Source: Thermoplasmata archaeon
GTDB taxonomy: Archaea > Thermoplasmatota > Thermoplasmata > Lutacidiplasmatales > UBA184
DNA length: 64,000 nt
Assembly: GCA_028864975.1 (NCBI GenBank)
Contig: JAGWLG010000011.1
Span: forward strand, 26,081-90,080
Reading direction: 5' to 3'
Below, piece by piece: positions 44,237 to 60,439 of the stretch; the stretch's first letter is position 1; each line of letters starts with the position of its first letter. The notes beneath the pieces are model-generated. The model ran no database searches and was not told the origin of the DNA. It was given only the letters and a program-made list of their open reading frames with translations. A program made the translations under genes and the position numbers.

Positions 44237-44905
44237 CTAGGCCTGTGTGATGGAGAGAACGATCTGGTCCTGCTGGACCCACGCCAAGGTCCCCCGCGCT
44301 CCCGTCCCGGCGATCTCCTCTGTGAGGACGATCGTCGCGGTCCCTCCGGGGGCGCCCAACGTGGTCGTGATCCGGGGACCGAACGCGCGGGCGGCCTGAA
44401 GCGGGTTCAGGGACGTCGAGAGCGGGGGAACGCTCGTGCTCTGCAAGTTCATCGTGTTGGTCGTGCATCCCGCGCCGGCCCTCGCCAGGCAGACCGCGAC
44501 CCGTCCCATGTTCGCGGTCCAAGAGTTCGAGCTGAGGCCGATCTCCCCCCGGGTCCCGCGAAGAGCGGTGAATCGCACGGGCTCGGCGAAAGTGAAGGCG
44601 GTCCCCCGACAGCCGCGAGGCAGGGTGATGGTGACCTGAGCGCGAGTGGAGGAGGGGTACACCGTGGTCGTGACCACCGCGGTCCCACATCGCAGACGGA
44701 CGTTGGCGGCGGCGCTGGAGAGCGGCACAGGGGTGGCCTGGCTTCCCCCGGAGCCGAGGTTGTCCTCGGCCACCGCCACATGGGCCACACTGTCGGGGAG
44801 GAGGAGCAGGACGAGGAGGAACAGGGCACCCGCTCCCGCCCACGGTGCCCACTTCCCTCGGGGCCCGGTCTCTCTCCACGACCCGACGCGCAAGGCTCCG
44901 CCCAT
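44237..44905 (-). CDS. Secreted protein, divergent member of the local pilin-like paralog family
   Basis: Basic n-region and hydrophobic h-region; GSGGSQATP aligns with GSVGSAGSP of the upstream gene; four Cys; starts 15 bp after 44921. Confidence 0.7.
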   Translation of the reverse strand: MGGALRVGSWRETGPRGKWAPWAGAGALFLLVLLLLPDSVAHVAVAEDNLGSGGSQATPVPLSSAAANVRLRCGTAVVTTTVYPSSTRAQVTITLPRGCRGTAFTFAEPVRFTALRGTRGEIGLSSNSWTANMGRVAVCLARAGAGCTTNTMNLQSTSVPPLSTSLNPLQAARAFGPRITTTLGAPGGTATIVLTEEIAGTGARGTLAWVQQDQIVLSITQA

Positions 44906-44920
44906 CTCGCTTCGACCCTC

Positions 44921-45673
44921 CTACGCCACCGCCAACACCGTGATGGTAGCGGGGGTTGTCGTCGAGGCCCCGGTGTTCGTGACCGCCAGTAGGAAGGAGA
45001 AGTAGAGGACCGTGACCCCCGCGCCCGTCCCCGACGCCACGATGATGCTCGCGCCGGAGCCGACGGCCGTGATGGGCAGGTTCACCTGGGTCCCCGCGCA
45101 GGTGGGCGCGTAGATCGCCCAGGGGTTCCCGTTGCCGTCGATCCCGCTCGCCAGAGCGGGACCCGTGTCCGCGACCCCCGTGGGGGCCGCGGTGCAGTAG
45201 GACACGTAGGCCGCGTTGACCCCCGTCGCGACGAGCGCGGAGCTGACGGCCACGTTCAGGGTCCAGGCGACCGTGGTTGCGACCACGGTCTGGAACGCGA
45301 GCGTGTCGAGCGTGTAGGTCGAGGCGGCGCCGTCCGCGCCATTGACGGCCACGGTCACGGAGGTCTGGGCGGCGTTCGCGTACGTGTCGAGCTGGAAGCC
45401 CTGGGCGCTCGCTGTGGCGTAGTTGGCCCCATTGACGAACTTGAAGGGGCTTCCGGCCGACCCCACCGACCCGAAGGCACGGTAGGCGAGGATCACATCC
45501 GCCGCGACCACGCCCGCCCCCACGGACAGGCCTACCAGGGAGGCGACCGCGATCCACGCCGCGGGCGACCACCGTGCTGTCCGACGTCGGGACCCCCCCG
45601 AAGAGCGGGGCGCCCGGGTGATGCGGATCGGTCCCAGGTCCACATGCCAAGAAGCGCTCCCCCCAGATATCAC
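44921..45673 (-). CDS. Secreted pilin/fibre-subunit-like protein (ADVILxY family, copy 1)
   Basis: Signal-like N-terminus, AA|DVILAY...GSPFKFVNGANY; beta-rich body. The true start may be GTG 45643. Confidence 0.8.
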   Translation of the reverse strand: MISGGSASWHVDLGPIRITRAPRSSGGSRRRTARWSPAAWIAVASLVGLSVGAGVVAADVILAYRAFGSVGSAGSPFKFVNGANYATASAQGFQLDTYANAAQTSVTVAVNGADGAASTYTLDTLAFQTVVATTVAWTLNVAVSSALVATGVNAAYVSYCTAAPTGVADTGPALASGIDGNGNPWAIYAPTCAGTQVNLPITAVGSGASIIVASGTGAGVTVLYFSFLLAVTNTGASTTTPATITVLAVA

Positions 45674-45834
45674 ACTTTAGCCACGCCGGCTCGGGGGGGT
45701 TATACGGGTACGCATGAACCTGTATTGACTCGGGTTTCGGGCCCAAGGGGCCCGCCCTTCCGTCACGGGGGGAACGACCGAGGAATCCTTGAGGAGGCTT
45801 GTCCTCGCCTGGAAGGAGGGACCGCGCGCAAACC

Positions 45835-48810
45835 ATGGACGGCGAACGGGGGGGTACAGCCCACCTTATCGGACGGGAGGAGGAGCTGGGGAGGCTGCGG
45901 AACGGCCTCGAACGGGCGGACCACGGCCAGGGCGGAGCCTGGCTCTTGCTGGGACCGGGGGGGATCGGCAAGACCCAGGTCCTCCGGTGGCTCGAGGAGG
46001 AGGCCCGTGCCCGGGGGTTCGAGGTCCGCTGGGGCTACGCCCTCAAGGATGAGATCTCGCCGTTCTTCGCGTTCCAGCAGGCCTTCCGCCGCCCGGCCAA
46101 CGAGGAGTGGGATGCGTTCGCCTCTCCCGAGGGTGGATCGGCCCCCCTTCCCGAGGCCCTCGCGCCGCTCGTGATCCTGGAGGAAGGGGCGGACCGGCGA
46201 TGGCCCTCGATGCTCACCACCCTGGCCCGTTCCCGACCGCTCCTGCTCTTCACCCGTCGGCAGGCACCTCGGCCGTTCCTTCCCGGGGGGACCCAGGGAG
46301 TAGGGGCGGTCATCCTCTCGCGCGTCGAAGGCGTGGACCACCTGCCTCCGACGTCCCTGGACCTGATCGCCGAACGAGCGGAGGAGCACTTGCTCAGGCA
46401 TCCCGGCGGGGCGGTTGCGTTCGAGAACCTGGAGTTCCTCTGCAGCCAGAACCCCGTGCGCTCCGTCCTCCAGTTGCTCCAGTACGTCCGCGACACCGCG
46501 CTTGCCCATCGAGGCACGGTCCTCGTGAGCTTGCGACCGGGGGCGTTCCATCCCCGCGACCTTGCTCTCCTCGAGACGGACGCGCAGGTCCTTCGCGCTC
46601 CCCCTCCGAACGTTCCGGGCTCCTCGTCTCGGACCGCGGGGCAAGTCTCCACCCCCGCGGTCACGATGTTGGGCTATCTCAGCATCCTCGAGGAGGCGGG
46701 ACGACGGGCGGCTCAGCTCCTGATCGTGGACGACCTGCACTGGGCCGACGCGCTCTCCGGTCTCGCCTTCCAGTTCCTGGGACGGAACACATCGGACCTT
46801 CGGCTGATGCTGGTCGGGGCGGCCCGGGAGGAGGATCTCCCGGTCGGGAGTGACGACGGAGGCCCCTCCCTCATCTCGCGGTTTGACGCCCTGGAGAGAG
46901 AGGGACGACTCCAGCGGGTCGCGCTCCGCCCCTTCGGGCCGTCGGAGGTTCGTGAGCTCTCGCGGCAGCTCATCGGGAGCTCCCCGGCCCCGCCTTCGGA
47001 CGAGGCCGTCGCGGCCCTGCTCAAGCGGACGGAAGGGAACCCCTACTTCCTTCGGGAGATCCTTCTCCAGTGGCAGGAGGAAGGTCAGCTCCATCGCCTG
47101 GGCCCGACCGAAGTGCCGGAACTGACGGGGGAGACCGGCCGCGTCGCCGCGGCCAACGCGGTCCCGCCGTCCATCCGTAGGTTCGTCCTCCACAGACTTT
47201 CGCGCCTCTCGAAGGAGCAACGTGCTTGGTTGGACGCGGCCGCGGTCGCGGGCAGCGAGTTCGAGGTGGCTCCCCTGCCCGCGGCGCTCGGCCTCTCGCT
47301 GGAGCGGACCCTTGCGATCGCCGAGGAGCTCTCGTTCCAATATCGTCTCATCGAGCCTGCCACCGGGACCGCCGAGGAGGGATGGTCGTTCGCCCATCCG
47401 ATGGTCTGGGAGGCGGTGATCGAGACCCTCGTCCCATCGCACCGACGGGCCTATGCCCTCTCGCTCCTCGGATGGTGGGAGATCCACCGGTCCGGGGACC
47501 TCGGCGCCCTCGCGCGACTGGGCCACGACACCGGGGAGGTCCCGCGAGCCCTTCCTTGGGTCCGCAAGGCGCTGAAGGATGCGGCCGAGCGGCTGGCCCC
47601 CGAGGCGACGTTGACCTACCTCGCGTGGGAGCACGAGCTCACCAGGTCCGCCGGCCGCCGCCCCATGCCCTCGGAACTTGAGGACGAGACCGAGGACATC
47701 GGCCGCGCTTCGAACGCAGGGGGTGGGCGAAGCGCCATGAACGCCCTCAGGGGCCTCCTTGCCGAGGAACTGGGTCCGTCGCTACGCTGGAGGGTCCGCA
47801 CCCAGCTCGCCATGGGCCTGGCACGTTTGGACCGCAGGGAGCATGTGGCCATGTTGGAGACCCTCCAGCAGGAGATCGAGCGCGGTGGGGACGACGTTCC
47901 CGGGTTCGCGCGGCACCGCGTCCAGATCATGCGCGCCGACCTGGCGTTCGATCTGCAGAAGTTCGAGGAGGCCTCCGCCCTCTACCGCTTGGCCGTGGAG
48001 GCCCCCCCGTCGGACCTCCCGCCTCTCTTGCGGGTGGGAGCGTTCCGGAACTTGATCATGTGCGAGCAGGCCCTGGGGCGGGGCGACCATGTGCCGGGTT
48101 GGCTCTCCCGGGCGGAGCCGTATGTCAGGGACGACCCCCGGGCCGCCTCTCCTCTCAGGAACGCGGAGGCGTATTGCCGCTTCGTGGCGGGCGACATGCA
48201 AGCTGCCGTCCGGCTTAGCCTGGAGGCGGCGAAGATCGAGCGAGAGCAAGGGTTCCTCAGTGCCGCGGTGACCGACGAGTACAATGCCGCCAACATCCTC
48301 ATGGACCTGGACGAAAGGGAGGAGGCCGAGCGGCTCGCCAAGGGGATCTTCGAGGTGGGGAGGAAGTTCGACATCGCGCGCACACGCTACCTCGGTGCGC
48401 TGCTCTTGGCTCAGCTCTCTTCCCGCGCGGGCGACCATTCCGCCGCTCTCCGCTGGGCCGCCCGGGCGAGGGCGGAGGCGGCAGAGACCCAGATCACCGG
48501 CGACGTCCGGGAAGGGCGCATTGTGGAAGCCGTGGTGATAGGACGGTCAGGTGACCTCCCCCGCGCCATCTCCGCCTTCGACGAGCTTGACCGTGAGGGG
48601 GCCTTCACCGGGGCGCCGCAGGCGGAGTCCTCCCTGCCGGACCTTTGCGACTTCCTGGAGCGAAACGGAGACCTGCCGCGGGCCCTCGAGATCGCCCGAC
48701 GCGTCCAGGCCGCCGCAGAGGCCCTCCATAATGCTCCCTCCTCCCAGAAGGCCCGCATGAGGGTGGATCGCCTGGTCGAGCAGATCGGAACACCGGGTCC
48801 CCCCTCTTGA
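45835..48810 (+). CDS. STAND-type AAA ATPase with inserted DUF835-like domain and C-terminal TPR-like repeats
   Basis: LIGREEEL, Walker A GPGGIGKT, DUF835-like insert, Walker B LLIVDDLHWAD, TEGNPYFLRE, YRFSH-like WSFAHP; ATG 45835. Confidence 0.88.
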   Translation: MDGERGGTAHLIGREEELGRLRNGLERADHGQGGAWLLLGPGGIGKTQVLRWLEEEARARGFEVRWGYALKDEISPFFAFQQAFRRPANEEWDAFASPEGGSAPLPEALAPLVILEEGADRRWPSMLTTLARSRPLLLFTRRQAPRPFLPGGTQGVGAVILSRVEGVDHLPPTSLDLIAERAEEHLLRHPGGAVAFENLEFLCSQNPVRSVLQLLQYVRDTALAHRGTVLVSLRPGAFHPRDLALLETDAQVLRAPPPNVPGSSSRTAGQVSTPAVTMLGYLSILEEAGRRAAQLLIVDDLHWADALSGLAFQFLGRNTSDLRLMLVGAAREEDLPVGSDDGGPSLISRFDALEREGRLQRVALRPFGPSEVRELSRQLIGSSPAPPSDEAVAALLKRTEGNPYFLREILLQWQEEGQLHRLGPTEVPELTGETGRVAAANAVPPSIRRFVLHRLSRLSKEQRAWLDAAAVAGSEFEVAPLPAALGLSLERTLAIAEELSFQYRLIEPATGTAEEGWSFAHPMVWEAVIETLVPSHRRAYALSLLGWWEIHRSGDLGALARLGHDTGEVPRALPWVRKALKDAAERLAPEATLTYLAWEHELTRSAGRRPMPSELEDETEDIGRASNAGGGRSAMNALRGLLAEELGPSLRWRVRTQLAMGLARLDRREHVAMLETLQQEIERGGDDVPGFARHRVQIMRADLAFDLQKFEEASALYRLAVEAPPSDLPPLLRVGAFRNLIMCEQALGRGDHVPGWLSRAEPYVRDDPRAASPLRNAEAYCRFVAGDMQAAVRLSLEAAKIEREQGFLSAAVTDEYNAANILMDLDEREEAERLAKGIFEVGRKFDIARTRYLGALLLAQLSSRAGDHSAALRWAARARAEAAETQITGDVREGRIVEAVVIGRSGDLPRAISAFDELDREGAFTGAPQAESSLPDLCDFLERNGDLPRALEIARRVQAAAEALHNAPSSQKARMRVDRLVEQIGTPGPPS

Positions 48811-48979
48811 AGGGCCACCTGGCCCCGACGTGGCGGCGCGCGAATGGCGGAACGCCCTGGAGGGCTCCGCGGCCAAGGGAGATCCCTGCGCGAGGTGCTT
48901 GGGATCGAAGCACCTTCGGAGAAGGGAGACCCAGGGATTGATTACCTGGGTCGCGTTGGCCCACGCACGGGTGACCGAC

Positions 48980-49183
48980 ATGGTCCAACGCATCACCGAG
49001 GTCGTAGGGATCTCGAAGAAGAGCTTCGCCGACGCCGCATCGAACGCCATCGAGACCGCTTCCAAGACGGTCCGTGGGATCAAGTGGTTCCGCGTATCCG
49101 AGATGGAAGGCCGCTGCGAGAACGGCAAGGTCGTGGAGTACCACGCTAGCCTGAGGATCTACTTCGAGTACGAAGGAAAATAG
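48980..49183 (+). CDS. Dodecin family flavin-binding protein
   Basis: ITEVVGISKKSFADAASNAIETASKTVRGIKWFRVSE...EYHASLRIYF. Confidence 0.92.
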   Translation: MVQRITEVVGISKKSFADAASNAIETASKTVRGIKWFRVSEMEGRCENGKVVEYHASLRIYFEYEGK

Positions 49184-49977
49184 CGGCGAAGGGCCGGGGG
49201 CACGCAGCCCCCCTTTTCACCTGATGCGAGCCGCTCCAAGGGCCTCCCTCGTTTCGGGCCGTTGCGGCCCACCACACCGCTCTGGCGGTTCGTGGTGCGG
49301 CTCTTTGGTTGTAGTGCGCCGGGGGCCGCGGTAGATGTCGAGCGATCGACCTCACGTAGCGCGCCCGCCGGCTTCGTTCGCGCGTCCGTACCCTTCTCCT
49401 CCGGGCGCAGGAGCCCTGCGCGCTCGGCCTCTTCTCGGACCCGCTCGATCCGTTCGGCCACCCGGGGCCCGACCCCGAAGCGGGAGGCGAGGCGCTTGAC
49501 CTGCGTCATGAGTCCCCAAGGTGCGCCGGCGCGAAGGTCGCGCAGGACCTTCTGGACCTGGACCAACCAGGCCTCCCCCTCGATGGACAGGCGCATGTAC
49601 CAGACCACGGGGACCGTAGCCATCCTCCCCTCCGGGGCTTCCTTCGAACCGTACCTCACCACGTGATCGAAGAACTCGTCCCCCGTTAGAGTCCCGCTGA
49701 ACGCGCTTGGATTCAGCAGATCGAACCGGACCAGCGTCGGACCGACCACGAAGTGCCCCCCCGCCATCTCACCGGATTCGCGGGTCATGGACTCAATAGA
49801 GGGGTCGTGGTCCAAGGCCTCGACGGCTCGGTCGTAGTCGCGGGCCACCATCAGCACATCCACGTCCCGTGACTCGGAGGGATAGACGGTGAGGACGGCC
49901 GCCCCCCCGACAACGACGAAGCGGACCCCGTTCCGCGAGAGCATCCGAGCGAACGCTCGCACGTGCTCTCGGTTCAT
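49159..49977 (-). CDS. Nucleotidyltransferase-fold protein (AbiEii/DUF6036-like putative toxin)
   Basis: FVVVGGAAV...SRDVDV GG/DxD motif, FDLL; ATG 49977 overlaps the upstream stop (ATGA). Confidence 0.7.
   Translation of the reverse strand: MNREHVRAFARMLSRNGVRFVVVGGAAVLTVYPSESRDVDVLMVARDYDRAVEALDHDPSIESMTRESGEMAGGHFVVGPTLVRFDLLNPSAFSGTLTGDEFFDHVVRYGSKEAPEGRMATVPVVWYMRLSIEGEAWLVQVQKVLRDLRAGAPWGLMTQVKRLASRFGVGPRVAERIERVREEAERAGLLRPEEKGTDARTKPAGALREVDRSTSTAAPGALQPKSRTTNRQSGVVGRNGPKRGRPLERLASGEKGGCVPPALRRYFPSYSK
49196..49216 (+). terminator. Hairpin plus T-tract after dodecin
   Basis: GGGGGC-ACGCA-GCCCCC-TTTT. Confidence 0.55.
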
Positions 49978-50537
49978 AGCCGCCCACCGACCCAGGCATT
50001 GCGGTCTTGGAGCTCCAAACTCGAGCGAGGGAGGCTCTCGCCCACCCGCGGCAGTCCCGGGACGAGTTCCTGAAGACCGACGAGCGTCGCGCTCCTCTCC
50101 TGGTCCTCTTGCAGGATGCGCTTGAGGAGACGATCCGGATGGAGGAACTTCCGGTGGCGCATGGCCAGGGCGCGGGCCAGGAGGGGCTCTCGCATGAGGA
50201 GCACGACTACCAGGTCCTCCAGGGTGGGCCTTCTGGCCGCCTCCTCCGACCGCAGAGCGAGGACAGGGAAGCTGGTCCCGACGAGCCCCACGAGCCCCTT
50301 CGCCACCACGAGCCACGTCCCCCCGGAGCGAGGAAAGCCCCAGGCGGCCGTCACCTCCGGCGGGATCGCATGGACGGGAAGCCCGGCCCGACCGGCCTCC
50401 CTCGCGTCCTCGATGGTCCGTATGCGCAACCGGAAGGTCCGGTGCGGACGATGGGCAGGACGCCGCTCTGGTAGGACGAGGGCTCGCGGAACGTGCCGGT
50501 CCTTTGGCGAGTGGACGAGCGTCGTCGCTAGCCGCAC
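49974..50537 (-). CDS. Hypothetical protein, putative cognate antitoxin/partner
   Basis: Coupled to the NTase gene by ATGA overlap; GTG start 23-30 bp downstream of a TATA-like element. Confidence 0.65.
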   Translation of the reverse strand: MRLATTLVHSPKDRHVPRALVLPERRPAHRPHRTFRLRIRTIEDAREAGRAGLPVHAIPPEVTAAWGFPRSGGTWLVVAKGLVGLVGTSFPVLALRSEEAARRPTLEDLVVVLLMREPLLARALAMRHRKFLHPDRLLKRILQEDQERSATLVGLQELVPGLPRVGESLPRSSLELQDRNAWVGGRL

Positions 50538-50569
50538 GTTAGTTAAGAAGTCACGTTAGTATTAATACT
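50535..50569 (-). promoter_or_regulatory. Promoter/operator: direct repeats CACGTTAGT x2 and palindrome AGTATTAATACT
   Basis: Repeats at 50535-50543 and 50552-50560; perfect 12-bp palindrome 50558-50569 containing TATTAATA. Confidence 0.7.
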
Positions 50570-50734
50570 TCAGTGAACGGAAATGTCAATCATCCGTGGG
50601 CGACCTGGTGGGACGGACAGACAACGGGAAGGCTGTTGCGTAGCACCCGGTCCCGCGGAACGACTTCGGCTGCGAAGGGCCGAAGCAGGGGCCAATCGAG
50701 CGGGGCTCGCTGCCGCCGATCGCTTCCGAGCGCC

Positions 50735-51166
50735 CTACTTCGGGTTCGGCTCGCTCGGGTGGTTCCACTCCTCGAGCGGGTCGTGGTAGGTCCCCGCCGC
50801 CCTCGCGAAGCCCTTCTGGGCCCCCTTCTTGGCGGCCTTGATCCCGCGGGCGGTGTAGACGACGGGCGCCTCGGCCGCGATCTTCGCGCCGGACTTTACG
50901 GCGCGGCCCGCTTTCTTCAGGTCCTCCTCGACGTGCTTCGGGAAGTCCTTGAGCGACTTGTGGGCCTTGTAGCTCAGCCTTGCGAGCTTGAACTCGATCT
51001 CCTCGTGCAGGACCGAGTAGTCATGGCCGATCGTGTGGGGCAGACGGGCGATGTCCTTCTCGACGTCCTTGAACTCGATCTCGATGTCCTTCCCGATCCC
51101 GTGGGTCGCTTCTCGTAGCAGCTGTACGTGGGCTCGGAATCGTGGTGCATCATCCTCGGCGCTCAT
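50735..51166 (-). CDS. Hypothetical helical protein
   Basis: 143 aa, K/E/A/H-rich amphipathic helices; codon style like other genes in the window. Confidence 0.7.
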   Translation of the reverse strand: MSAEDDAPRFRAHVQLLREATHGIGKDIEIEFKDVEKDIARLPHTIGHDYSVLHEEIEFKLARLSYKAHKSLKDFPKHVEEDLKKAGRAVKSGAKIAAEAPVVYTARGIKAAKKGAQKGFARAAGTYHDPLEEWNHPSEPNPK

Positions 51167-51330
51167 GGGGGCTCCAATCCGGCAACGTTCAGCAGCATAA
51201 AAGCGGGGGTCTGGACATGCAAGGCTCCGGGGGCGGATCTTCCCGCCCGGGGCGCCCCCTCGGCATCCCTATAGACGCTCTGGAAGGACGAAACGCTATA
51301 CCTGGCCCGCCCTCGGTAGGTCGGAGTTCG

Positions 51331-54300
51331 ATGAGTCCCCGACTCGCCTTCCGAGTGCCCCTGCTGCTGACGGTTCTTGGGATCACCGGCCTCATGGCGC
51401 TGCCGACGGGGGTGTTGGCCCCGGTGGGACCCCTCAGTACTGAGGCGTCGGGCGGCCCCAGGACGCCACATGCCACGCACGAGAACCCCTCCACACCTTC
51501 CTCCATCCGGACCGCGACGCCCATCCAGCACGTGATCGTCATCATCCAGGAGAACCACGGAACGGACAACTACTTCAACCAGTTCCCGGGCGCCTTTGGG
51601 CTCCCGCCCGGGGGCGTACCTCAGCCGGCCAACCAGTCGGGCATCCAGTACTACGGGAACCAGTACACTCTCGGCTGGAACTACAGCGGGAACCAGAGCT
51701 CCGGGGATCCCGCTCACGGCGTCGAGAACATCGACCGCAACATCGACAACGGGACGATGGACGGGTACATGTACACGGACAGCCAGACCTCGAACGGGAT
51801 CTACCCCTCCTACATCGTCCCCAACGAACTGGGCCTCGCGCAGGAGTACGGGTTCGCGGACCAGTACTTCCACGCCTACGCGGGCCCCACGCTGCCGAAC
51901 CGCTTCTACGACTACGCGATCACCTCGGGGTCGGTCCTGGACAACAGCGGCCCCTCCAATGGTTCGAACCTGGTCTACTTCAACAGCCTCCCCCAGGAGC
52001 TCCAGAGCTCGGGGGTCAGCTGGGCGTCCTTCGACGGGTCCTACAACTCGGGGAGCTCGGTCTATGCTTGCTGGATGGGCGTGGTGGGCTACTTCCCGCC
52101 CAATCCTTGCTGGTACTTTGACACGACGCTCTCCCAGTTGATGCCCATGCTTTACTTCAACTGGATCCAGAACGGCAGCCTCTCGGACCTCCAGCCCTGG
52201 AGCAACCTCTACTCCGACCTCTACACGAACAATCTTCCGTCGGTCTCCTGGTACACCCAGGACTACCTCAATGGGACCGAGCACCCGGGGACCATCGCGG
52301 GGTTCGGGGGGAACGTGACGAACGGCCAGGCGGGCCTTGACGGGGTGGTCCGTGCCGTGGAGAACTCCCCCTACTGGAACTCGACCGCCATCTTCCTCAC
52401 CTACGACGAAGGAGGAGGGTTCTTCGACCACGTGCCGCCCCCGAGCGTGACGGGGCTGGGGGATGGGATCCGCATCCCGCTCGTGGTCATCTCCCCCTGG
52501 GCGAAGGAGGGGTACGTCTCCCAGACCTACTACACCCCCTCCTCGCTGCTCCACTTCATCGAGTGGAACTGGAACCTCCCCGCACTGGGCTCCCTCGACG
52601 GGATCTCGAACCTCCCGCTCGATTTCTTCAACTTCAGCGCCCCGCAGCCGCGCCCACCCCTCCCCCAGAGCGACTGGGGATTGCCGAACGAGCTCACGGC
52701 CTTCCCGTGGCCCCAGCAGCCCCCCAGCGTCGGCCTGGGCGGAGGGAGCTACACGCCCGCCCTGATCTCCGGAGGGAATCTCTCTTGGGCAATCCCCACC
52801 CAGAACTCCCAGCTCGCAAGCCCGACAGCGACCTCCGATGGCACCCGACTTTACGTGGCCGGCATGGATGGCATCCTCAGGGCGCTCGACCCGTTCACAG
52901 GTCAAGAGCTCTGGAGCGATGCTCTGGGCACCGCGTCCCGCACCCCCACTGCGCTCCTGCCCGGGGACGGGGTCATCGCCACGACGCTTCGAGGGACGAT
53001 CGTGGCGTACTCCAGTTCGAACACCCTGCTCTGGAACCTGAGCGTGGGGGCCCCGATCTACAGCGGGCTCACGACCGTGCAAGGCACCTACTACGGGGCC
53101 ACGACGAACGGGTCCGTCTTCGCGGTGTCCGAGAACGGGACCCTGCTCTGGTGGCACCAGGTCACGAAGGACCGGGTCTACGCGCCGCTCGCGTACGACC
53201 CGAGCGACAGTCTCCTCATCCTGGGGACGGCGAACCCCTCGGGAGGCGACGTCATCGGGGTCGACCTGTCGGGAAGCGTTCACTGGACCTCCCCCGTCCC
53301 GGGCGGCATCTTCGGTGGCGGCGCCGTGGCGTCGGGGACCTACTACGCCACCACCACGTCGGGCGGGGTCTACCCCGTCGTCACCAGCTCGGGTGTCGTT
53401 GGTACTCCCGCGGCCTTGCCCGGCTCCTCTGTCACGGCGCCGCTGATCGACGGGTCCACGCTCATTGCTGGGAACGAGACCGGGTTCCTCCAGGCCTACG
53501 CTCTGCCGAGCCTGGCCACCTCGTGGAGCGCCTCCCTCTGGGGGGACATCGCCGGTACCCCCGCGGTGAGCGGCAACAACATCTGGGTGGGGACCGGAGC
53601 AGGCTATCTCTACGAGATCCCCGCCGCTGGCGGGACCCCGATCCAGGTGCTCCACAGCGGGACCTCGTTCTACCGGGGTCCCACCGTCGTCCCCGGGGGG
53701 CTCTACATCACGGCCGAGGACGGGGAGGTCTACGGGTGGGTCCATCCGGGATGGGTCGCGGGCACGGTCACGAACGTCTCCTCCGGGGCGCCCATCAGCG
53801 GAGCCTCGGTCCTCTTCACGACGCCACGGGGGCCGGTGACGGCCACGACGGGCGCGGGAGGCAACTTCAACGCCTCCCTCCCCGGGGGGAGCTATGCGTT
53901 CTTCTTGAACGTCAGTGGCTATCTGCCGAAGACCGGCAGCACGAGCGTCACCCCCTCCCAGACGACCACGCTGAACGTGGCGCTCACCCCCTCCGGCATC
54001 CACCCCGGCTTCGCCGACGTTCGACTCGCTCCTACCAACGCCATTCTTTCGGTGAACGGGACCGCGCAGCCGATCGCGGCCGGCGGGACCTATTCGCTCT
54101 CCCTGATCCCTGGCCCGTACGTGCTCGCGGCGACGGCGACGGGGTACAACCCTCAATCGACCACGATCGCGGTCCGCTCCTACCTGACCACGTTCTGGAA
54201 CGCGACGCTCCAGCCGGTCGGAGGCGCCCATCCCGGATGGGCGGCAGGCGTGATCACGAACAGCAGCACCGGCGCTCCGCTCTCCGCGGTCAATGTGCTG

Positions 54301-55080
54301 CTCCGCTCGGCGGCAGGACCGGTCGCTGCGACCTCGGGCACGAGCGGGGCGTACAATGTGAGCCTGAACCCGGGCTCGTACTCCGTCTTCGCGAACTCCA
54401 CAGGCTACCATCCGTTCTGGGGGAACGCGACCGTGAGCGCGTCGTCGACCACGACGCTCAACATCCCCCTCGTCCCGGTCCCCCGTGTGGTCCAGCCCGG
54501 TGTCGTGTCCGGGACGGTCTACGGCGGCTCGGCCGCCTCGGGCAACGGGCTCTCGCTCATCCACCTCTACTTCTTCCCCGGAGGAGAGGCCACGATCTCC
54601 AGTACCGGGGGGATCTATTCCATCTCTCTCCCCGCCGGGACCTACTCCGTCTTCGTGAACGCGACGAACTACCAGCCCTACGCGACGAACGGCATCGTGG
54701 TCACTTCTGGTGGAACGACCAGCCAGAACGTGGTCCTGCTCTCCGTGGCCTGCACCGCGGGCTCGAACCTGTGCAACGCGCATAAGGCCGGCACGAACGT
54801 CACGGCAATCAATTGGGTCCTCTGGGCGTTGGTCGTGGCCGCGGTGGCGGCCGCGCTGCTGATGCTCGCGGTCGTGGTCCGCAGGGGCAAGCGGGGGCCC
54901 CCCGCGGCCGTTCCCACCGAAGCCGAATCGATGAGCGAGGAGGCGGGCGCCGGAGCCATGGTGGGGACGACCCAGGCGCTCCCGCCGACGGCGGACGAAC
55001 GTGTGTACTCGGAGCAACTGGTGAGTGGGCTCAATGACCCGTCGAACGACGAGCCGCCGCCGGACAGCGATGCCATCTGA
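51331..55080 (+). CDS. Cell-surface phosphoesterase (PLC/AcpA family) fused to PQQ-like beta-propeller, carboxypeptidase-regulatory-like repeats and C-terminal TM
   Basis: IQHVIVIIQENH..DNYF, PNRFY, EHP, TYDEGGGFFDHVPPP, RIPLVVISPWAK; propeller LRALDPFTGQELW; GTVTN..SGAPISGA.V repeats; ATG 51331. Confidence 0.9.
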   Translation: MSPRLAFRVPLLLTVLGITGLMALPTGVLAPVGPLSTEASGGPRTPHATHENPSTPSSIRTATPIQHVIVIIQENHGTDNYFNQFPGAFGLPPGGVPQPANQSGIQYYGNQYTLGWNYSGNQSSGDPAHGVENIDRNIDNGTMDGYMYTDSQTSNGIYPSYIVPNELGLAQEYGFADQYFHAYAGPTLPNRFYDYAITSGSVLDNSGPSNGSNLVYFNSLPQELQSSGVSWASFDGSYNSGSSVYACWMGVVGYFPPNPCWYFDTTLSQLMPMLYFNWIQNGSLSDLQPWSNLYSDLYTNNLPSVSWYTQDYLNGTEHPGTIAGFGGNVTNGQAGLDGVVRAVENSPYWNSTAIFLTYDEGGGFFDHVPPPSVTGLGDGIRIPLVVISPWAKEGYVSQTYYTPSSLLHFIEWNWNLPALGSLDGISNLPLDFFNFSAPQPRPPLPQSDWGLPNELTAFPWPQQPPSVGLGGGSYTPALISGGNLSWAIPTQNSQLASPTATSDGTRLYVAGMDGILRALDPFTGQELWSDALGTASRTPTALLPGDGVIATTLRGTIVAYSSSNTLLWNLSVGAPIYSGLTTVQGTYYGATTNGSVFAVSENGTLLWWHQVTKDRVYAPLAYDPSDSLLILGTANPSGGDVIGVDLSGSVHWTSPVPGGIFGGGAVASGTYYATTTSGGVYPVVTSSGVVGTPAALPGSSVTAPLIDGSTLIAGNETGFLQAYALPSLATSWSASLWGDIAGTPAVSGNNIWVGTGAGYLYEIPAAGGTPIQVLHSGTSFYRGPTVVPGGLYITAEDGEVYGWVHPGWVAGTVTNVSSGAPISGASVLFTTPRGPVTATTGAGGNFNASLPGGSYAFFLNVSGYLPKTGSTSVTPSQTTTLNVALTPSGIHPGFADVRLAPTNAILSVNGTAQPIAAGGTYSLSLIPGPYVLAATATGYNPQSTTIAVRSYLTTFWNATLQPVGGAHPGWAAGVITNSSTGAPLSAVNVLLRSAAGPVAATSGTSGAYNVSLNPGSYSVFANSTGYHPFWGNATVSASSTTTLNIPLVPVPRVVQPGVVSGTVYGGSAASGNGLSLIHLYFFPGGEATISSTGGIYSISLPAGTYSVFVNATNYQPYATNGIVVTSGGTTSQNVVLLSVACTAGSNLCNAHKAGTNVTAINWVLWALVVAAVAAALLMLAVVVRRGKRGPPAAVPTEAESMSEEAGAGAMVGTTQALPPTADERVYSEQLVSGLNDPSNDEPPPDSDAI

Positions 55081-55097
55081 CACGAGCTATCCGCGGT

Positions 55098-55571
55098 ATG
55101 GCGAGTGACCCTGCGGCCTCGGCGGCTCAGGTGGTCGTCCACTTCGATGGGGCCTGTCAGCCGCCGAACTCGAGCGGGATTGCGACCTGGGCGTTCACGG
55201 TGGAGGGGGCGGGACTGGACCGTGAGGACTCCGGGCTGGCGGCGCCGCCATTTTCCCCGGGCTCGACCAACAACGTCGCCGAGTACACGGGGGCGATCCG
55301 GGCGCTGGAATACCTCCTTGCGCGGGGATATCGCGGCCCGGTGCTCGTAATGGGCGACTCCGAACTAGTTATACGGCAGATGGAGGGGCGGTACCAGGTT
55401 CGGAAGGACCACCTGAAGTCCCTTCACCGGCGACTCAGTGCGCTGGCGGGGCAGTTCGCGCCCTCGATACGGTTCATCTCGGTGCCGCGCGAGAGGAACA
55501 CGCGCGCGGATGCGCTTACGAAAGAGGCGATTGATAAGGCCCGACGGGCGCTCGACCCACCGAACCAGTAG
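55098..55571 (+). CDS. rnhA: Ribonuclease HI (archaeal/actinobacterial type)
   Basis: VHFDGAC, TNNVAEY, GDSELVIRQMEG.Y, VPRERN.RADAL. Confidence 0.92.
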   Translation: MASDPAASAAQVVVHFDGACQPPNSSGIATWAFTVEGAGLDREDSGLAAPPFSPGSTNNVAEYTGAIRALEYLLARGYRGPVLVMGDSELVIRQMEGRYQVRKDHLKSLHRRLSALAGQFAPSIRFISVPRERNTRADALTKEAIDKARRALDPPNQ

Positions 55572-55696
55572 GGACGCACACGGAGCCATGCGTATTTAGA
55601 CGTAGTGGTCCCGCGCCGCCGCGACGTGCGCCGCCACACTTATTACACCCCTTCGGCAATTCTATCTCTGCGACCCGTAAGGGGGAGCGTGGTTGG

Positions 55697-56497
55697 ATGA
55701 ACACTGGATCAAGGAGCAAGGCGACGCGGGACACTCGGAATGGACGACACAAGCCCGTACGGTGGATGTCCGTACTGATGAGCGTCGCTGTCTTGACAGT
55801 CAGCGGAGCCGTCCTGGCCGACGTGGTCTTGACCTACTTCGCGAGCACGAACACGGGAGCCGGTACGACCCCCTTCGGCTTTGAGAACGCTGGAAACTAC
55901 AACCTTGCCTCTCACTACAACCTGGTGGTCAACACCTTCACTACGGCCAGCGCCCACGAGGCAGTTCTTGCCACGCTTGGTCTCGTCCAGGACGTCCAGA
56001 TCGAAGCGGTCAACGTAACCAGCTTCAACTTGACAAATGCCCTAGCTCTTCACGAGCATGCCTACATCAAGTCCCCTGGGACATTTGGTTCTGTCTCGGC
56101 GGGGGTGAATGGGATTGTTTGCGCCTACGCCATCGTGACCACCTACTTCCCGTCGGGGAACGTAACTTCTCTCGGTGGTGTCAGCACTTCCGGGGCTAAC
56201 TGCGGGGCGTTCATTCCTGGGCCCGCTCTAGGCGTGAACGGTGCGACCGCAACAGGGCAAGGATGCATCGGGGGAAAGAACTACGCGGTGTTCAATCTGA
56301 CGTCGGGAGTCGAAGACTCAGAGTCAGGGATGGCAGCGGGAGCGACGCTCTGCTCCCTCTCATCGTTCAGCACCGTCAGCCCGGGCGAGACCGGATCTCT
56401 CTTCGTGACCTATTCCTTTACCAGCGACCTTGTGGTCACCTCTGGAACGGTCCTTGACGGATTCTCGGTCCCGGTGACCATGACGCAGGGATCGTAG
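55697..56497 (+). CDS. Secreted pilin/fibre-subunit-like protein (ADVILxY family, copy 2)
   Basis: LA|DVVLTY...GTTPFGFENAGNY; CAYAIVT; C-terminal LFVTYS...FSVPVTM. Confidence 0.8.
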   Translation: MNTGSRSKATRDTRNGRHKPVRWMSVLMSVAVLTVSGAVLADVVLTYFASTNTGAGTTPFGFENAGNYNLASHYNLVVNTFTTASAHEAVLATLGLVQDVQIEAVNVTSFNLTNALALHEHAYIKSPGTFGSVSAGVNGIVCAYAIVTTYFPSGNVTSLGGVSTSGANCGAFIPGPALGVNGATATGQGCIGGKNYAVFNLTSGVEDSESGMAAGATLCSLSSFSTVSPGETGSLFVTYSFTSDLVVTSGTVLDGFSVPVTMTQGS

Positions 56498-56699
56498 GTG
56501 TCAAGACAACCCTTCCGAGTGCCCGGACTATCGGTGGGCCGGGGCGCGGCGGCGCCCAGGTCCACCAACCCATTCTTCCATATTCGTGGGCAGGGAGCGA
56601 TGAATTAGTGGCTATCTTCGCCCGAAGAATCGGAAACGGGCGTGGTACATCCCTGTCGAAGTAAACCGGCCTTGCGATGAAAGCCAGGCTTGCACACAG

Positions 56700-57527
56700 A
56701 TGGCCCCGCATAACTTCGGTGACAGACTTAAAGGACTGAGCGTGCGTATTACACGCACAGGTGTCGGCTTGTTCGGCTACCGATTGAAACTAGAACGCGC
56801 ACCCAGAAAGGACGATCAGAAATCCCGGCGACGCACCCTGATGGGCTTGGCGGTCCTCGTGGCCGCAATCACGTTCTCCGCCTTCGTGACTGCGGACGTG
56901 ATCCTCGTCTACACCGCGAAGAACTCGGTCAACAGCGCCGGCAGCTCGCCGTTCGCTTTCAACAACGGCGCCAACGAACCCCTCGCCAACAGCTTTGGGA
57001 TTCTGACCAACACCTGGCCGGCGGGGGGACCGGCGGGCCCTACGGTCTCGACCCTGGTCTCCGGTGTGAAGGATGTGCCGGTTGAAGTCCTCCAGGGAAC
57101 GATCTTCCAATTGAATGCGAACCTAGCGGCGGCAGACACCGCAACCTTCGGAACGATCAACGTGGGGACCGGGTCGTTCACGGCCGGGGGCCTGACCTGC
57201 GCCTATGCCTTCATCACCAATTTCCCACCGACCTCGGTCTCTGGAACGCTAACGGGGACCTCCGCTTGCGGCATCTACAATCCCACGGTCCCGGTGGCCG
57301 CGTCCACCTACTGTGGGAACGACGCGATGGTCACAGTCGACCTGACCAATGCAGTTGCTCCCTCAGGAGGCCCGATCTCCTGCACGATGAACGGTGCGCT
57401 CACCGCCCCCATCACAGTCCTCTACGTGAGTTATGGAGTGTCGCTTACCGATGCCTATGCGGGGGGGACGACTGTCCTCGATACCTACTCGATCCCGGTG
57501 ACCATCTGTCCCACCGCGGGCTGCTGA
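56700..57527 (+). CDS. Secreted pilin/fibre-subunit-like protein (ADVILxY family, copy 3)
   Basis: TA|DVILVY...GSSPFAFNNGAN; CAYAFIT; C-terminal LYVSYG...YSIPVTI. The true start may be TTG 56769 or 56784. Confidence 0.8.
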   Translation: MAPHNFGDRLKGLSVRITRTGVGLFGYRLKLERAPRKDDQKSRRRTLMGLAVLVAAITFSAFVTADVILVYTAKNSVNSAGSSPFAFNNGANEPLANSFGILTNTWPAGGPAGPTVSTLVSGVKDVPVEVLQGTIFQLNANLAAADTATFGTINVGTGSFTAGGLTCAYAFITNFPPTSVSGTLTGTSACGIYNPTVPVAASTYCGNDAMVTVDLTNAVAPSGGPISCTMNGALTAPITVLYVSYGVSLTDAYAGGTTVLDTYSIPVTICPTAGC

Positions 57528-57681: not shown

Positions 57682-59367
57682 GTGGTCGAAGAAGCCCGTG
57701 ACATCCGCGACCGCGGATACCTGGCCATCAACCTCCTCCTCGGGGGGATTGCGACGGCGGTCGGGCTGTTCAACATGTTCGCGCTCCACAACTTCGGAGC
57801 AGCCCCGATGTTCGACGCCCTGCTCGGGATGTCGATGATCAGCGTGGGTGCCTTGTTCATCGCGCCCTACATGGCGCCCCGGGAGCTCGGCCTTCCCGCA
57901 CCCGGTGTGCGGATGGCCCGGCGCCCTTACCTGCCCTTCCCTGTCCCGATCCCCGCGTCGCTCGAGCGCGGACGCCGAGGCCGAGAGGAGTTCGAGGGAG
58001 AGGAGGAGCTCCCGATGCTCCCTGCGCCCAGACGGAGGCCTGCGGGAGCCGCTGCTCGACCGAGAGCTGTCCCCGCCCCTTCCCCCGTGTCCCCTCCAAT
58101 GGCTGGAGTCGCAGCTTCCGCGGGCCTCCGAGCCGCAACTCCGATGGAAGCCGCGGCCACGATAGCGGAGCTCGAAGCCCTGGGAACAGCACCGGTAGCC
58201 CCGAGACCCGCTCCACCGCGTCCTCACCTCCCACCCTTCCGACCAACCGCACCTCCCCCGGCGGAATACCTCGAGGAGGAAGAGGCGGTGGCGAGCCTGG
58301 CCGTGACGCCCGAGCTCGAACCCCAGTTCAAGAGAGCGTTGGAGGATCTTGCAGGGGCGGCAGCGCTGCAGACCAATGGCGCACACCCGCTCGCCCTCGT
58401 CAACGGGAAGCCCCCGGAGCGTACGCTCTCGGACCTCGAAGAGGTTCTCCGTCAGCCCTCTCCCTCGGCCCCTCAAGAGCCCCGGTTGCCCCAGTCCATG
58501 CGACCCCCCATCTCGACCTCCACCGTTCCACAGGAGGCGGTAGGCGAAGTGGACCAGCTGGAGCAGGAGCTCCAGACCATGCCCCGTGTTGAATCGGTTC
58601 TTCCCGCGCCGATCTCGACACCCGTAGAGGAACCGTTCCCTGCCACCATAGCGGAAGCGTCGACTCCCTCGTCTGCCCTTCCCGAGCCAGAGCTCCCAGC
58701 TCCCCTCCCCCTACCTGTGGAGCCATTGAGCGGGCCGGTTCCCGGCGCCTCCCCACCGTCCGAGGAGGCCCCTGGACCTACCACAGTAGCACCGAGCGAA
58801 GTCGCACCCGCGACCGACATGAAGGACGCTGCCTCGAGCCTGCCCACGATCGAGGAGGCGTTGGGCACGAAGGAGGGCCAGCTGGAGGAGATGGCGCGGA
58901 CCCTCGAGAGCATGGTCTCCCAGATCCGTTCTGAGCCGGAGGTGGTCCCTCCCGAGCCAGTCCCCTCTCTGACGGAAGCGGCAGCCCCCGCGCCGCCCGC
59001 CCCCGAGCCGACCGCACCCCTCACACCTGAGACGTTCTCGGAAGAGAACGAACCTGCTCCCGCCATCGACGATCTCGAACGGCAACTGGCCGCCATGCGG
59101 TCGACCCTCGTCCGTGAAGGGCCCAAGCCCCTCCCCCGGCCGGGATCGGCGCCACGGAAGGCTCCAGAGGCAGCGACGCTCCCTCTACCGCTTCCCCCAG
59201 CTCCCTCTCCCGAGGAAGCGAAGGAGGTCGAGCCTCCAAAGGAGGCGGAGAGCGTGGACGAACTGGACCAGCTCCTCGAAGACGCGTCATCCGCCGCGAA
59301 GCTGACCCAGGAGCGGCACATCGACCATGAGAAGAACGCACGCCGACGACGGAAGAGCGGGCCGTAG
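57682..59367 (+). CDS. Membrane-anchored (2 TM) protein with long Pro/Glu/Ala-rich disordered region
   Basis: Two N-terminal hydrophobic helices, then low-complexity sequence with short helices (LEQLEQEL, IDDLERQL, VDELDQLL). Confidence 0.7.
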   Translation: MVEEARDIRDRGYLAINLLLGGIATAVGLFNMFALHNFGAAPMFDALLGMSMISVGALFIAPYMAPRELGLPAPGVRMARRPYLPFPVPIPASLERGRRGREEFEGEEELPMLPAPRRRPAGAAARPRAVPAPSPVSPPMAGVAASAGLRAATPMEAAATIAELEALGTAPVAPRPAPPRPHLPPFRPTAPPPAEYLEEEEAVASLAVTPELEPQFKRALEDLAGAAALQTNGAHPLALVNGKPPERTLSDLEEVLRQPSPSAPQEPRLPQSMRPPISTSTVPQEAVGEVDQLEQELQTMPRVESVLPAPISTPVEEPFPATIAEASTPSSALPEPELPAPLPLPVEPLSGPVPGASPPSEEAPGPTTVAPSEVAPATDMKDAASSLPTIEEALGTKEGQLEEMARTLESMVSQIRSEPEVVPPEPVPSLTEAAAPAPPAPEPTAPLTPETFSEENEPAPAIDDLERQLAAMRSTLVREGPKPLPRPGSAPRKAPEAATLPLPLPPAPSPEEAKEVEPPKEAESVDELDQLLEDASSAAKLTQERHIDHEKNARRRRKSGP

Positions 59368-59412: not shown

Positions 59413-59754
59413 ATGATCTACCGCAACCGGGACATCAGGCTGTTTCGGAGCGTGGTGGTCGCGGTCTCGTTCGCCACCCTCGCGGTGGCGGCCCTCACGT
59501 ACGTCCAGTGCAGCTCCACCCGCCCTCCGTCCTGCGGCCCGATCGAACCCCAGATCCTGGTGGCTGTCGTCTTCGCGGTGATCCTCTACGGCGTAGGGGA
59601 GTGGCTCCTTCCCGTCCCCCTGGAACCGCCGCGGACCCCCACGCCGCAGCCCAAGCCTCCTCGGATGAGGGCGTGGCGCCGCGGTCCCGCCCGGAGCACG
59701 CTCGGCCCCGTTCCGCCCTCGGGGGAGGCTACGTCCAACCGTAAGCGGCGTTGA
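59413..59754 (+). CDS. Small 2-TM membrane protein
   Basis: Two hydrophobic helices separated by a CSSTRPPSC loop. Confidence 0.6.
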   Translation: MIYRNRDIRLFRSVVVAVSFATLAVAALTYVQCSSTRPPSCGPIEPQILVAVVFAVILYGVGEWLLPVPLEPPRTPTPQPKPPRMRAWRRGPARSTLGPVPPSGEATSNRKRR

Positions 59755-60439
59755 GAATGAACAGGATCCGGGCGCAGGCCACGAGCGCGACGAAGAACAG
59801 CGGCAAGGTGGTCGCGCCGAGGGCCCGCAGTCCCAGGACCGGGCGGCCCCAGCGAGCCCGGTGCTCGATCCCGGCGGTGAGCATCACCGCGACCATGCCG
59901 AAGGGGGTCGCGTTCAGCGCGAAGGACCCGACCGCCCATCCATCGATGGGGGTCGGGACGAGGACCGCCAGCAGGAGTCCCGTGGTCGTCCCCGCCGCGG
60001 CGATGCGGAAGAAGAGCTCCCGGTGCCAGGCCTTGTCCTGGACGAAGTAGCCGACCAGCAGGATCGCGGCCCCTCCGCTCGTCGCGCCCAGCGCGGCGAT
60101 CACCGCTTCGGACCAGGTCTGATCGAACCCGGCGGGGAAGAGGAACTGCATCACGAGGGCCGGGAAGAGGAGGAAGAAGAGCCCGAAGGAGCAGTCGAAG
60201 AGGAAAAGCAGGAGCGGTAAGGTGGGGATGACGTTCACCGCACAGACCTTGTGGCACTCGCCGTTCTTGATGAGCTCGCGCTCAAAGACGCACGAGGCGC
60301 AGGGTTCCCGTCGATGGGGGAGCCCGCTCTTCCAAGCGACACGCCACAGGAAGACCGTGAAGATCGTCGCCAGGGAGATGCAGATGAAGAACGGGACCGC
60401 GATGTCCCAGAGGTTCGACCACTGCAGGACGAGGGGCAC
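59729..60439 (-). CDS. Multi-pass membrane protein with Cys4 loop
   Basis: About 6 TM helices; loop CASC-x11-CHKVC. Confidence 0.7.
   Translation of the reverse strand: MPLVLQWSNLWDIAVPFFICISLATIFTVFLWRVAWKSGLPHRREPCASCVFERELIKNGECHKVCAVNVIPTLPLLLFLFDCSFGLFFLLFPALVMQFLFPAGFDQTWSEAVIAALGATSGGAAILLVGYFVQDKAWHRELFFRIAAAGTTTGLLLAVLVPTPIDGWAVGSFALNATPFGMVAVMLTAGIEHRARWGRPVLGLRALGATTLPLFFVALVACARILFILNAAYGWT

Follow-up and report, generated by a model that had tools for sequence, protein, structure and literature searches.

Thread-like secreted proteins in Thermoplasmata: a gene family and conserved cassette that may encode a donor-strand surface fibre

The genes considered here lie in a stretch of 64,000 nucleotides (nt) from an uncultured archaeon of the class Thermoplasmata (contig JAGWLG010000011.1, positions 26,081 to 90,080), referred to below as the window, with a G+C content of 66-70%. 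An earlier note, made from the letters of the window alone, had described four of its open reading frames (ORFs), here named P0001 to P0004, as a family of four paralogous secreted proteins and as candidate subunits of an undescribed archaeal filament. An ORF check of the window confirmed all four at the coordinates and with the motifs given earlier. They form two tandem pairs, as had been described, with a gap of 15 nt from P0002 to P0001 and of 202 nt from P0003 to P0004. The genes, with their lengths in amino acids (aa), and the codons of the predicted donor strands are as follows (a slash in the sequence motifs below marks a cleavage site).

44237..44905, minus strand: P0001, 222 aa, divergent thread-like protein; candidate minor, cap or nucleating subunit
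44921..45673, minus strand: P0002, putative A-type thread-like pilin, 250 aa from a GTG start
45476..45499, minus strand: DVILAYRA codons, predicted mature N-terminus and donor strand of P0002
55697..56497, plus strand: P0003, putative B-type thread-like pilin, 266 aa
55820..55843, plus strand: DVVLTYFA codons, predicted donor strand of P0003
56700..57527, plus strand: P0004, putative B-type thread-like pilin, 275 aa from the ATG at 56700
56895..56918, plus strand: DVILVYTA codons, predicted donor strand of P0004

The sequence features quoted in the earlier note, namely the basic n-region, the h-region, the predicted cleavage A/D, the motifs DV[IV]L.Y and SPF.F.N[GA][AG]N and the C-terminal LY[VF]S[FY] strand, were all found as quoted, and so were the segments GSGGSQATP (P0001) and GSVGSAGSP. 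RAPR...SRRRT is present in two of the genes, P0002 and P0004, and no [KR]-G/A motif precedes the h-region, in agreement with the stated lack of a class III (prepilin) signal. In P0002, the basic n-region with RAPR..SRRRT is followed by an h-region at residues 35-58 and a predicted cleavage site A58/D59; its seven orthologues are 48-59% identical, with Cys160 and Cys192 invariant. The predicted site is A41/D42 in P0003, which has four Cys and four N-x-S/T sequons, and A65/D66 in P0004, which has six Cys. A GGAGG ribosome-binding box precedes P0001. The public gene call of P0004 is 228 aa long and starts at M48, dropping the basic n-region RAPRKDDQKSRRRT (window 56700-56840). Because the lost n-region is kept in P0002 and in the orthologues, this public start is probably mis-called.

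P0003 and P0004 share 30% identity from end to end (E 2e-22, BLASTP), and P0002 matches P0004 (E 4e-12) and P0003 (E 2e-11) across the N-terminal ~85 residues. The alignments of the A-type (P0002) and B-type (P0003/P0004) sequences match over 224 columns (hhalign 99.5%, E 2.5e-22). P0002, P0003 and P0004 are true paralogues, and the earlier claim of four paralogues holds for these three (E 2e-22 to 2e-11), whereas P0001 has only an N-terminal module, the fold and the locus in common with them.

A family alignment of 27 sequences displays a basic n-region, an h-region constant at 19-24 residues, a near-invariant A/D followed by V[IV]L[TS]Y and SPFxF..G.NY, a central G[VL]..CAYA strand, and a C-terminal LY[VI]S[FY] strand. 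The best-conserved segment comprises the first ~31 mature residues, with a majority fraction of 0.61 versus 0.38-0.50 elsewhere, which bears out the description of the mature N-terminus as strongly conserved. A65 and D66 (P0004 numbering) are invariant in both the B-type and the A-type alignments; of the 39 motif hits in library representatives whose N-terminus is intact, 29 read A/D.

The family is rare, unannotated and limited to Thermoplasmata. Six-frame searches found it in 15 of 41 related genomes, mostly as adjacent pairs, and 22 of the 301 genomes in a sample of the class Thermoplasmata have a match. A word-indexed homologue search with P0004 returned P0004 itself and one metagenomic protein. 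The distribution, for which the earlier note had proposed a profile search, was obtained from an exhaustive search of 1.84 billion representatives, in which 85 clusters were matched at E<=1e-3 and 48 at E<=1e-10. A second tier of the family consists of ~180-200-aa homologues (hhalign 99.4%), all 'hypothetical', from metagenome-assembled genomes of Thermoplasmata or Thermoplasmatales with one exception labelled Nitrososphaerota. A short relative also occurs in Thermoplasma acidophilum (WP_048161564.1/CAC11524.1), with the N-terminus ...AVA/DVMV. Neither the four proteins nor any of the 27 family members had a meaningful match in Pfam or NCBIfam, and the members are labelled 'hypothetical protein' wherever a source names them. 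A fold search of the ESM Atlas with the P0004 model yielded three unannotated ~180-aa archaeal clusters (TM 0.68), which originate from Thermoproteota, Thermoplasmatota and Bathyarchaeota.

The model obtained for P0004 with AlphaFold has a predicted local distance difference test score (pLDDT) of 74 and a predicted template modelling score (pTM) of 0.66, with a helix at residues 39-60 and a body at residues 81-275 at pLDDT 80-90. The models were compared with 48,161 PDB chains by an exhaustive aligner, and Foldseek against the PDB served as an independent search. The first-ranked match of P0004 is 7ueg_A (AbpA; Z 9.8, 146 aa, root-mean-square deviation (rmsd) 3.5), a bundling-pilus subunit of Pyrobaculum calidifontis, followed by 7pnb_A (Saci_0406; Z 9.0, 147 aa, rmsd 3.8), the thread subunit of Sulfolobus acidocaldarius. 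Next come the cannula protein CanA (Z 5.9), and then CS20, Hyper2, Tafi (Z 4.5), chaperone-usher/FimA-type pilins and TasA (Z 3.7). The earlier note had suggested a comparison with TasA, AbpA and CanA; of these, AbpA scores highest, with CanA and TasA far below. Foldseek ranked 7pnb_A first, 7ueg_A second and FimA third. The model of P0001 (AF2; pLDDT 72.8, with a disordered tail at 33-56) has the same top two matches, 7ueg_A (Z 9.8) and 7pnb_A (Z 9.2, 142 aa).

Saci_0406 is cleaved between Ala23 and Asp24 (LVA/DV), and its mature N-terminal strand is the donor strand, as seen by cryogenic electron microscopy (cryo-EM) (PMC9715654). When the family profile was searched against all PDB sequences, 7pnb_A ranked second of 177,635, with an E of 1.1 that is not significant alone and with the match restricted to the N-terminal 80 residues. 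The profile alignment places the h-region and the Saci_0406 segment VLVADVIYYYQGQITVGNVAPPMYF on ADVILTYQA..SVG...SPFeF of the family, so that ...VLVA/DVIYYYQGQITVGNVAPPMYF of Saci_0406 stands in register with ...A/DVILTYQA..SVG...SPFeF, and hhalign on the N-terminal segment of Saci_0406 gives 77.5% (E 1.9e-5). The LVA/DV-type site is in register with VTA/DV in P0004, VLA/DV in P0003 and VAA/DV in P0002, and DVILAYRA of P0002 with D24-VIYYYQ. Chance is an unlikely explanation for Saci_0406 being among the two best matches in the structure search and again in an independent search by sequence. Over the full length, the comparison of the family profile with the PDB sequences gave no significant similarity to Saci_0406. 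Bridging through the ~180-aa relatives was also tried; their profile gave only nanobody-like noise in the PDB, and 7pnb_A was not listed. Asp24 is conserved in all homologues of Saci_0406, and an isopeptide bond Asp24-Asn57 (n to n+2) has been proposed (PMC9715654). In the present family, a near-invariant Asn, N92 in P0004, falls on N49 of Saci_0406 and not on the isopeptide partner N57.

P0001 showed no pairwise and no single-sequence profile similarity to the other three proteins. It was therefore rejected as a strict sequence paralogue and retained as a relative by fold, synteny and N-terminal module. A profile of its orthologues aligns with the pilin family only in the signal peptide and the N-terminal strand (hhalign 94.4%, E 8.7e-8), with the cleavage site in register. 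P0001 itself is signal-like up to A41 and continues with HVAVAE, His replacing the N-terminal Asp; against its A/HVAVAE, the orthologues read G/DVVVQ, A/DVVDS and A/DIVAS. Four Cys (73, 99, 139, 147) are invariant in the P0001 family, and the orthologues lie directly downstream of pilin genes in four relatives (G001, G002, G003, G010). P0001 is a separate sequence family with the N-terminal module, fold and locus in common with the pilins, much as Saci_0405 relates to Saci_0406. Saci_0405 is the co-transcribed neighbour of Saci_0406, has a similar fold, and may be a cap (PMC9715654). By analogy with Saci_0405, P0001 may be a minor subunit (cap, nucleator or tip) in which the same fold and N-terminal module would carry a different disulfide-bonded body.

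Two genes for membrane proteins accompany the pilin genes:

57682..59367, plus strand: PRO561, with a VVEE.RD motif and a two-helix membrane hairpin at the N-terminus; no Pfam family
59729..60439, minus strand: MEM236, polytopic membrane protein, Cys4

In PRO561, for which no Pfam match was found, the conserved hairpin is followed by a long Pro/Glu-rich region of low complexity that ends in conserved helical segments. The loop after the first membrane helix of MEM236 carries a near-invariant HRRE-C-x2-C...C-x3-C-AVN (nt 60230-60319). Among 18 loci compared, PRO561 lies directly downstream of the pilin genes in 10 and MEM236 adjoins them in 12. The arrangement that recurs has two pilin genes, in some loci a P0001-like gene, then PRO561 and, on the other strand, MEM236. 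MEM236 is present in 9 of the 301 genomes of the class sample, which are exactly the nine pilin-carrying genomes of one family (f1). Within that family, one genus has pilin and MEM236 jointly in 2 of 28 genomes. This patchy joint presence points to one cassette; the genomes are related, and hence not independent. For MEM236, Pfam gave only a sub-threshold match to MFS and the ESM Atlas nothing useful.

As a separate observation, a complete 2.23-Mb genome (G282) contains three tandem short paralogues of 191-205 aa (L056:4108-5955, minus strand), each with ...AVA/DVMITG. Downstream of them is a polytopic membrane protein of 264 aa, for which no relationship to MEM236 was detected. A comparison of MEM236 with the membrane protein beside another genome's short pilin genes gave no useful lead.

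Among known fibres, the thread of S. acidocaldarius (Saci_0406, 7PNB, arCOG10215) resembles the present family in several respects: a signal with a ~19-residue h-region ending in VxA/DV, an N-terminal Asp and a hydrophobic strand, a beta-sandwich head (Z 9.0-9.2 for the predicted models), and, beside the subunit gene and in the same orientation, a gene whose divergent product shares the fold (P0001 here, Saci_0405 there). Neither locus has a chaperone, usher, ATPase or dedicated peptidase, and neither protein has a Pfam family; for the threads, the lack of a Pfam domain and of any known dedicated peptidase or chaperone has been reported (PMC9715654). The two differ in that homologues of Saci_0406 were found only in Crenarchaeota (PMC9715654) whereas the present family is in Thermoplasmata, in the strand (DV[IV]L[TV]Y versus DVIYYYQ), in the mature subunits (192-225 residues with conserved Cys pairs versus 183), in the presence here of two to four paralogues per genome, and in the conserved partners (PRO561 and MEM236).

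AbpA/AbpB of P. calidifontis (7UEG; PMC9245690) share with the present proteins a Sec-type signal and, in AbpA, the best structural match of both models; AbpA forms a chaperone-free donor-strand fibre, and its operon also contains membrane proteins. In contrast, AbpA is cleaved at AMA/TL and lacks the N-terminal Asp-Val motif, and no gene like AbpB/TapA was recognised here, a structure-based search not having been made. The haloarchaeal Tafi pili (TafE/TafA, 9P0A; PMC12337348, PMC11821415) are likewise strand-donation pili of 'euryarchaeal' lineages with several paralogous subunits, and their Tat (twin-arginine translocation) and Sec signals were found to be swappable; some copies of the present family also have twin arginines. 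The fold match to Tafi is only Z 4.5, however, the topology of TafE is called distinct by its authors, and the h-regions here look Sec-like. The TafE search in the published Tafi work did not retrieve proteins of the Saci_0406 type (PMC12337348, PMC11821415). Cannulae (CanA, 9H8B) also have jelly-roll subunits, donor-strand complementation and chaperone-free assembly, but they are wide calcium-dependent tubes, match at only Z 5.2-5.9, and have no sequence link to the present family. Chaperone-usher pilins (FimA, CfaB/CfaE, CS20), which appear at Z 4-8 in both hit lists, have an incomplete Ig-like fold completed by the strand of a neighbour; as there is no periplasmic chaperone, usher or outer membrane here, this is an analogy and not membership. 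For Thermoplasmatota, TasA homologues of the PF12389 type, not the present family, have been noted (PMC9245690), and a 2025 study of Thermoplasmatales surfaces described only type IV pili and archaella (PMC12448462).

Taken together, these results make it probable that the locus codes for the building blocks of a surface fibre resembling threads or bundling pili, in which the subunits are joined by donor-strand complementation. The earlier proposal of donor-strand polymer subunits is upheld as far as the top-ranking folds (AbpA and Saci_0406) and the A/D site and strand in register with Saci_0406 are concerned. The analysis establishes the paralogy, the conservation of the family, the similarity of the predicted folds, the in-register match of the N-terminus to Saci_0406 and the conserved cassette; cleavage, polymerisation, the export route, and the role of each paralogue and partner are inferred. 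Calling the filament undescribed went too far, since publications on threads and bundling pili date from 2022; the novelty lies in the phylum, in the unannotated family of sequences and in the accessory genes.

In the proposed mechanism, P0002, P0003 and P0004 would be exported, more likely through Sec, and the hydrophobic signal of 19-24 residues would be removed at the conserved VxA/D site by a general type I signal peptidase (SPase I). The N-terminal Asp and the strand DV[IV]L[TV]Y would thereby be exposed, and the strand would insert into the beta-sandwich of a neighbour, as in Saci_0406 threads and AbpA pili, to give a thin, very stable adhesive or biofilm fibre. PRO561 and MEM236, two membrane proteins inherited together with the pilins, probably anchor the fibre or aid its assembly. 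A more specific proposal, according to which MEM236 and PRO561 form a dedicated anchoring or assembly platform for chaperone-free archaeal donor-strand pili, and the two pilin subtypes and P0001 assemble into a heteropolymer whose shaft and whose tip or cap consist of different subunits, is put forward only tentatively and may well prove wrong.

A TatC gene is present in the genome, and RR occurs near the h-region in about half of the family members, in a few of them as RRRFL; P0003 has none. Relatives of low G+C content have K-rich n-regions, and the host genome has 68% G+C. Sec is considered the likelier route, given the strong hydrophobicity of the h-regions and the fact that at high G+C content the arginines may do no more than take the place of Lys; Tat might still serve the copies with RR.

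The SipW-like neighbours suggested earlier were not encountered: there is no signal peptidase, SipW-like ones included, among the locus genes or the conserved neighbours. Probes for SPase I (TIGR02228, PF00717 and the SPase domain of a relative) had no match in the 89.6%-complete genome, and the only SPase I candidate in it is a PF10502 match of 52 bits on another contig (C20). With this candidate, the idea of a genome without SPase I was dropped; a general SPase I would therefore be available, as is assumed for Saci_0406 and AbpA.

Some observations on peptidases in other genomes may be added. In one relative (G009:C11), a fusion protein (L063:68-1303, plus strand) has a CPBP membrane protease domain of the Rce1-like type (PF02517) in front and an SPase I domain (PF10502/TIGR02228) behind it. 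SPase-hit open frames of ~450-570 aa in other relatives suggest that the CPBP-SPase fusion is common in this order. In T. acidophilum, a 264-aa membrane protein is encoded ~1.5 kb upstream of the thread-like gene (L057:738-1532 and L057:3061-3675, both on the plus strand). It matches archaeal signal peptidase I weakly and below the threshold (E 4.4e-4), and may be a locus-linked peptidase.

Several points weigh against the fibre. The Z scores of ~9-10 exceed only by a modest margin the 7-8 that the tool gives as its typical best score by chance, and for P0001 the top hits (9.8 and 9.2) stand by a small margin above generic Ig-like, pilin and adhesin folds at ~8. The sequence similarity to Saci_0406 is confined to ~33 residues, in part hydrophobic signal, and the YYY hallmark of threads is absent, the family consensus DV[IV]L[TV]Y having a single aromatic at +6. 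The fold of P0004 may be complete on its own, given that residues 65-72 form a strand in the monomer model, at low confidence (pLDDT ~55). This strand, however, does not decide the question, because monomer models of AbpA show the same self-complementation (PMC9245690). Lastly, the h-region is as long as a transmembrane helix and could be an uncleaved anchor. This last point leads to a different explanation, namely that the proteins do not polymerise, keep the N-terminal helix as an anchor, and form part of a disordered glycoprotein coat that replaces an S-layer, perhaps as adhesins or lectins. Thermoplasmatales are indeed reported to have an unordered glycoprotein layer (PMC12448462), P0003 carries the four N-glycosylation sequons mentioned above, an h-region of 19-24 residues can span a membrane, and the beta-sandwich is generic enough for the P0001 model to match FimH/FmlH lectin domains, CfaE and PapD-like domains at Z ~7-8. 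An anchored protein, on the other hand, needs neither a near-invariant Asp after the helix nor a following strand that is the most conserved part of the protein; both the Asp and the strand match a cleaved thread subunit in register, and the best fold matches of both models are two filament subunits, not coat proteins. The coat is thus regarded as an unlikely explanation.

The fibre could also belong to another known class. That the proteins are TasA/camelysin-type matrix proteins or Tat-exported pilins of the Tafi type, working by the same mechanism without being relatives of the threads, is suggested by the best fold match, AbpA, itself a TasA homologue, and by the RR-containing n-regions and TatC described above. 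The fold scores of TasA (Z 3.7) and TafE (9p0a_C, Z 4.5) are low, though, the hydrophobic h-regions and the substitution of Arg for Lys at 68% G+C offer another account of the twin arginines, and the N-terminal motif matches Saci_0406 and not AbpA with its AMA/TL site. PF12389 had no match at E<=1 in the 27 family members and none in the genome, a result compatible with a remote homology of the kind that HHpred detects, as for AbpA. Altogether, kinship with TasA or Tafi appears quite improbable. Still less can be said for type IV pilins, in which a prepilin peptidase would trim the basic leader and the hydrophobic helix would become the core of the filament. The layout of basic leader, hydrophobic helix and beta-rich head bears a superficial likeness to them, but the [KR]-G/A cleavage motif before the helix is missing, and conservation is lower in the helix than in the strand behind it (0.49 versus 0.61), opposite to the pattern of type IV pilins. 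Moreover, no type IV pilin is among the top 50 fold matches of either model, no PilB/PilC-type gene was seen among the scanned or conserved neighbours, and threads with the same N-terminal layout assemble without PibD (PMC9715654). A type IV pilin is accordingly considered very improbable.

If the proposal of a donor-strand fibre is true, the thread-like family in Thermoplasmata would extend such fibres to another archaeal phylum, and the two membrane proteins of the cassette would be concrete candidates for the assembly and anchoring of threads and bundling pili. The distant member in the culturable T. acidophilum makes the idea testable in the laboratory. Because the family is unannotated and has no Pfam or NCBIfam model, its loci are currently invisible to annotation.

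In this genus, the cassette is interrupted by ~10 kb that contain a STAND regulator, a dodecin gene and a 1312-aa phosphoesterase/PQQ surface protein. The STAND regulator, the dodecin, an RNase H-like gene and the large PQQ proteins were considered as parts of the cassette and rejected, because their conservation with it ends at the genus or family.

The STAND-type ATPase (45799-48810, plus strand; AAA_16, DUF835 and MalT-like TPR) is divergent from P0002 and is not kept beside the cassette in the other genomes compared. Directly downstream of P0001 and on the same strand (41050-44097, minus) is a surface protein of 1015 aa of the PQQ/beta-propeller type, which has a membrane anchor at the C-terminus and an acidic tail. 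It is syntenic within the genus only (4 loci), where it may extend the operon. The 1312-aa secreted protein between the pilin pairs (51142-55080, plus strand) combines a phospholipase C-like phosphoesterase, a PQQ beta-propeller, three CarboxypepD_reg domains and a C-terminal anchor. In 7 loci the RNase H-like gene (55098-55571, plus strand) immediately precedes the B-type pilin, and a gene for a 143-aa protein (50735-51166, minus strand) recurs nearby in 8; both probably reflect synteny at the family level rather than a functional link. The dodecin gene (48830-49183, plus strand; PF07311, E 3e-23) has an N-terminal extension of ~50 residues if the GTG start is used.

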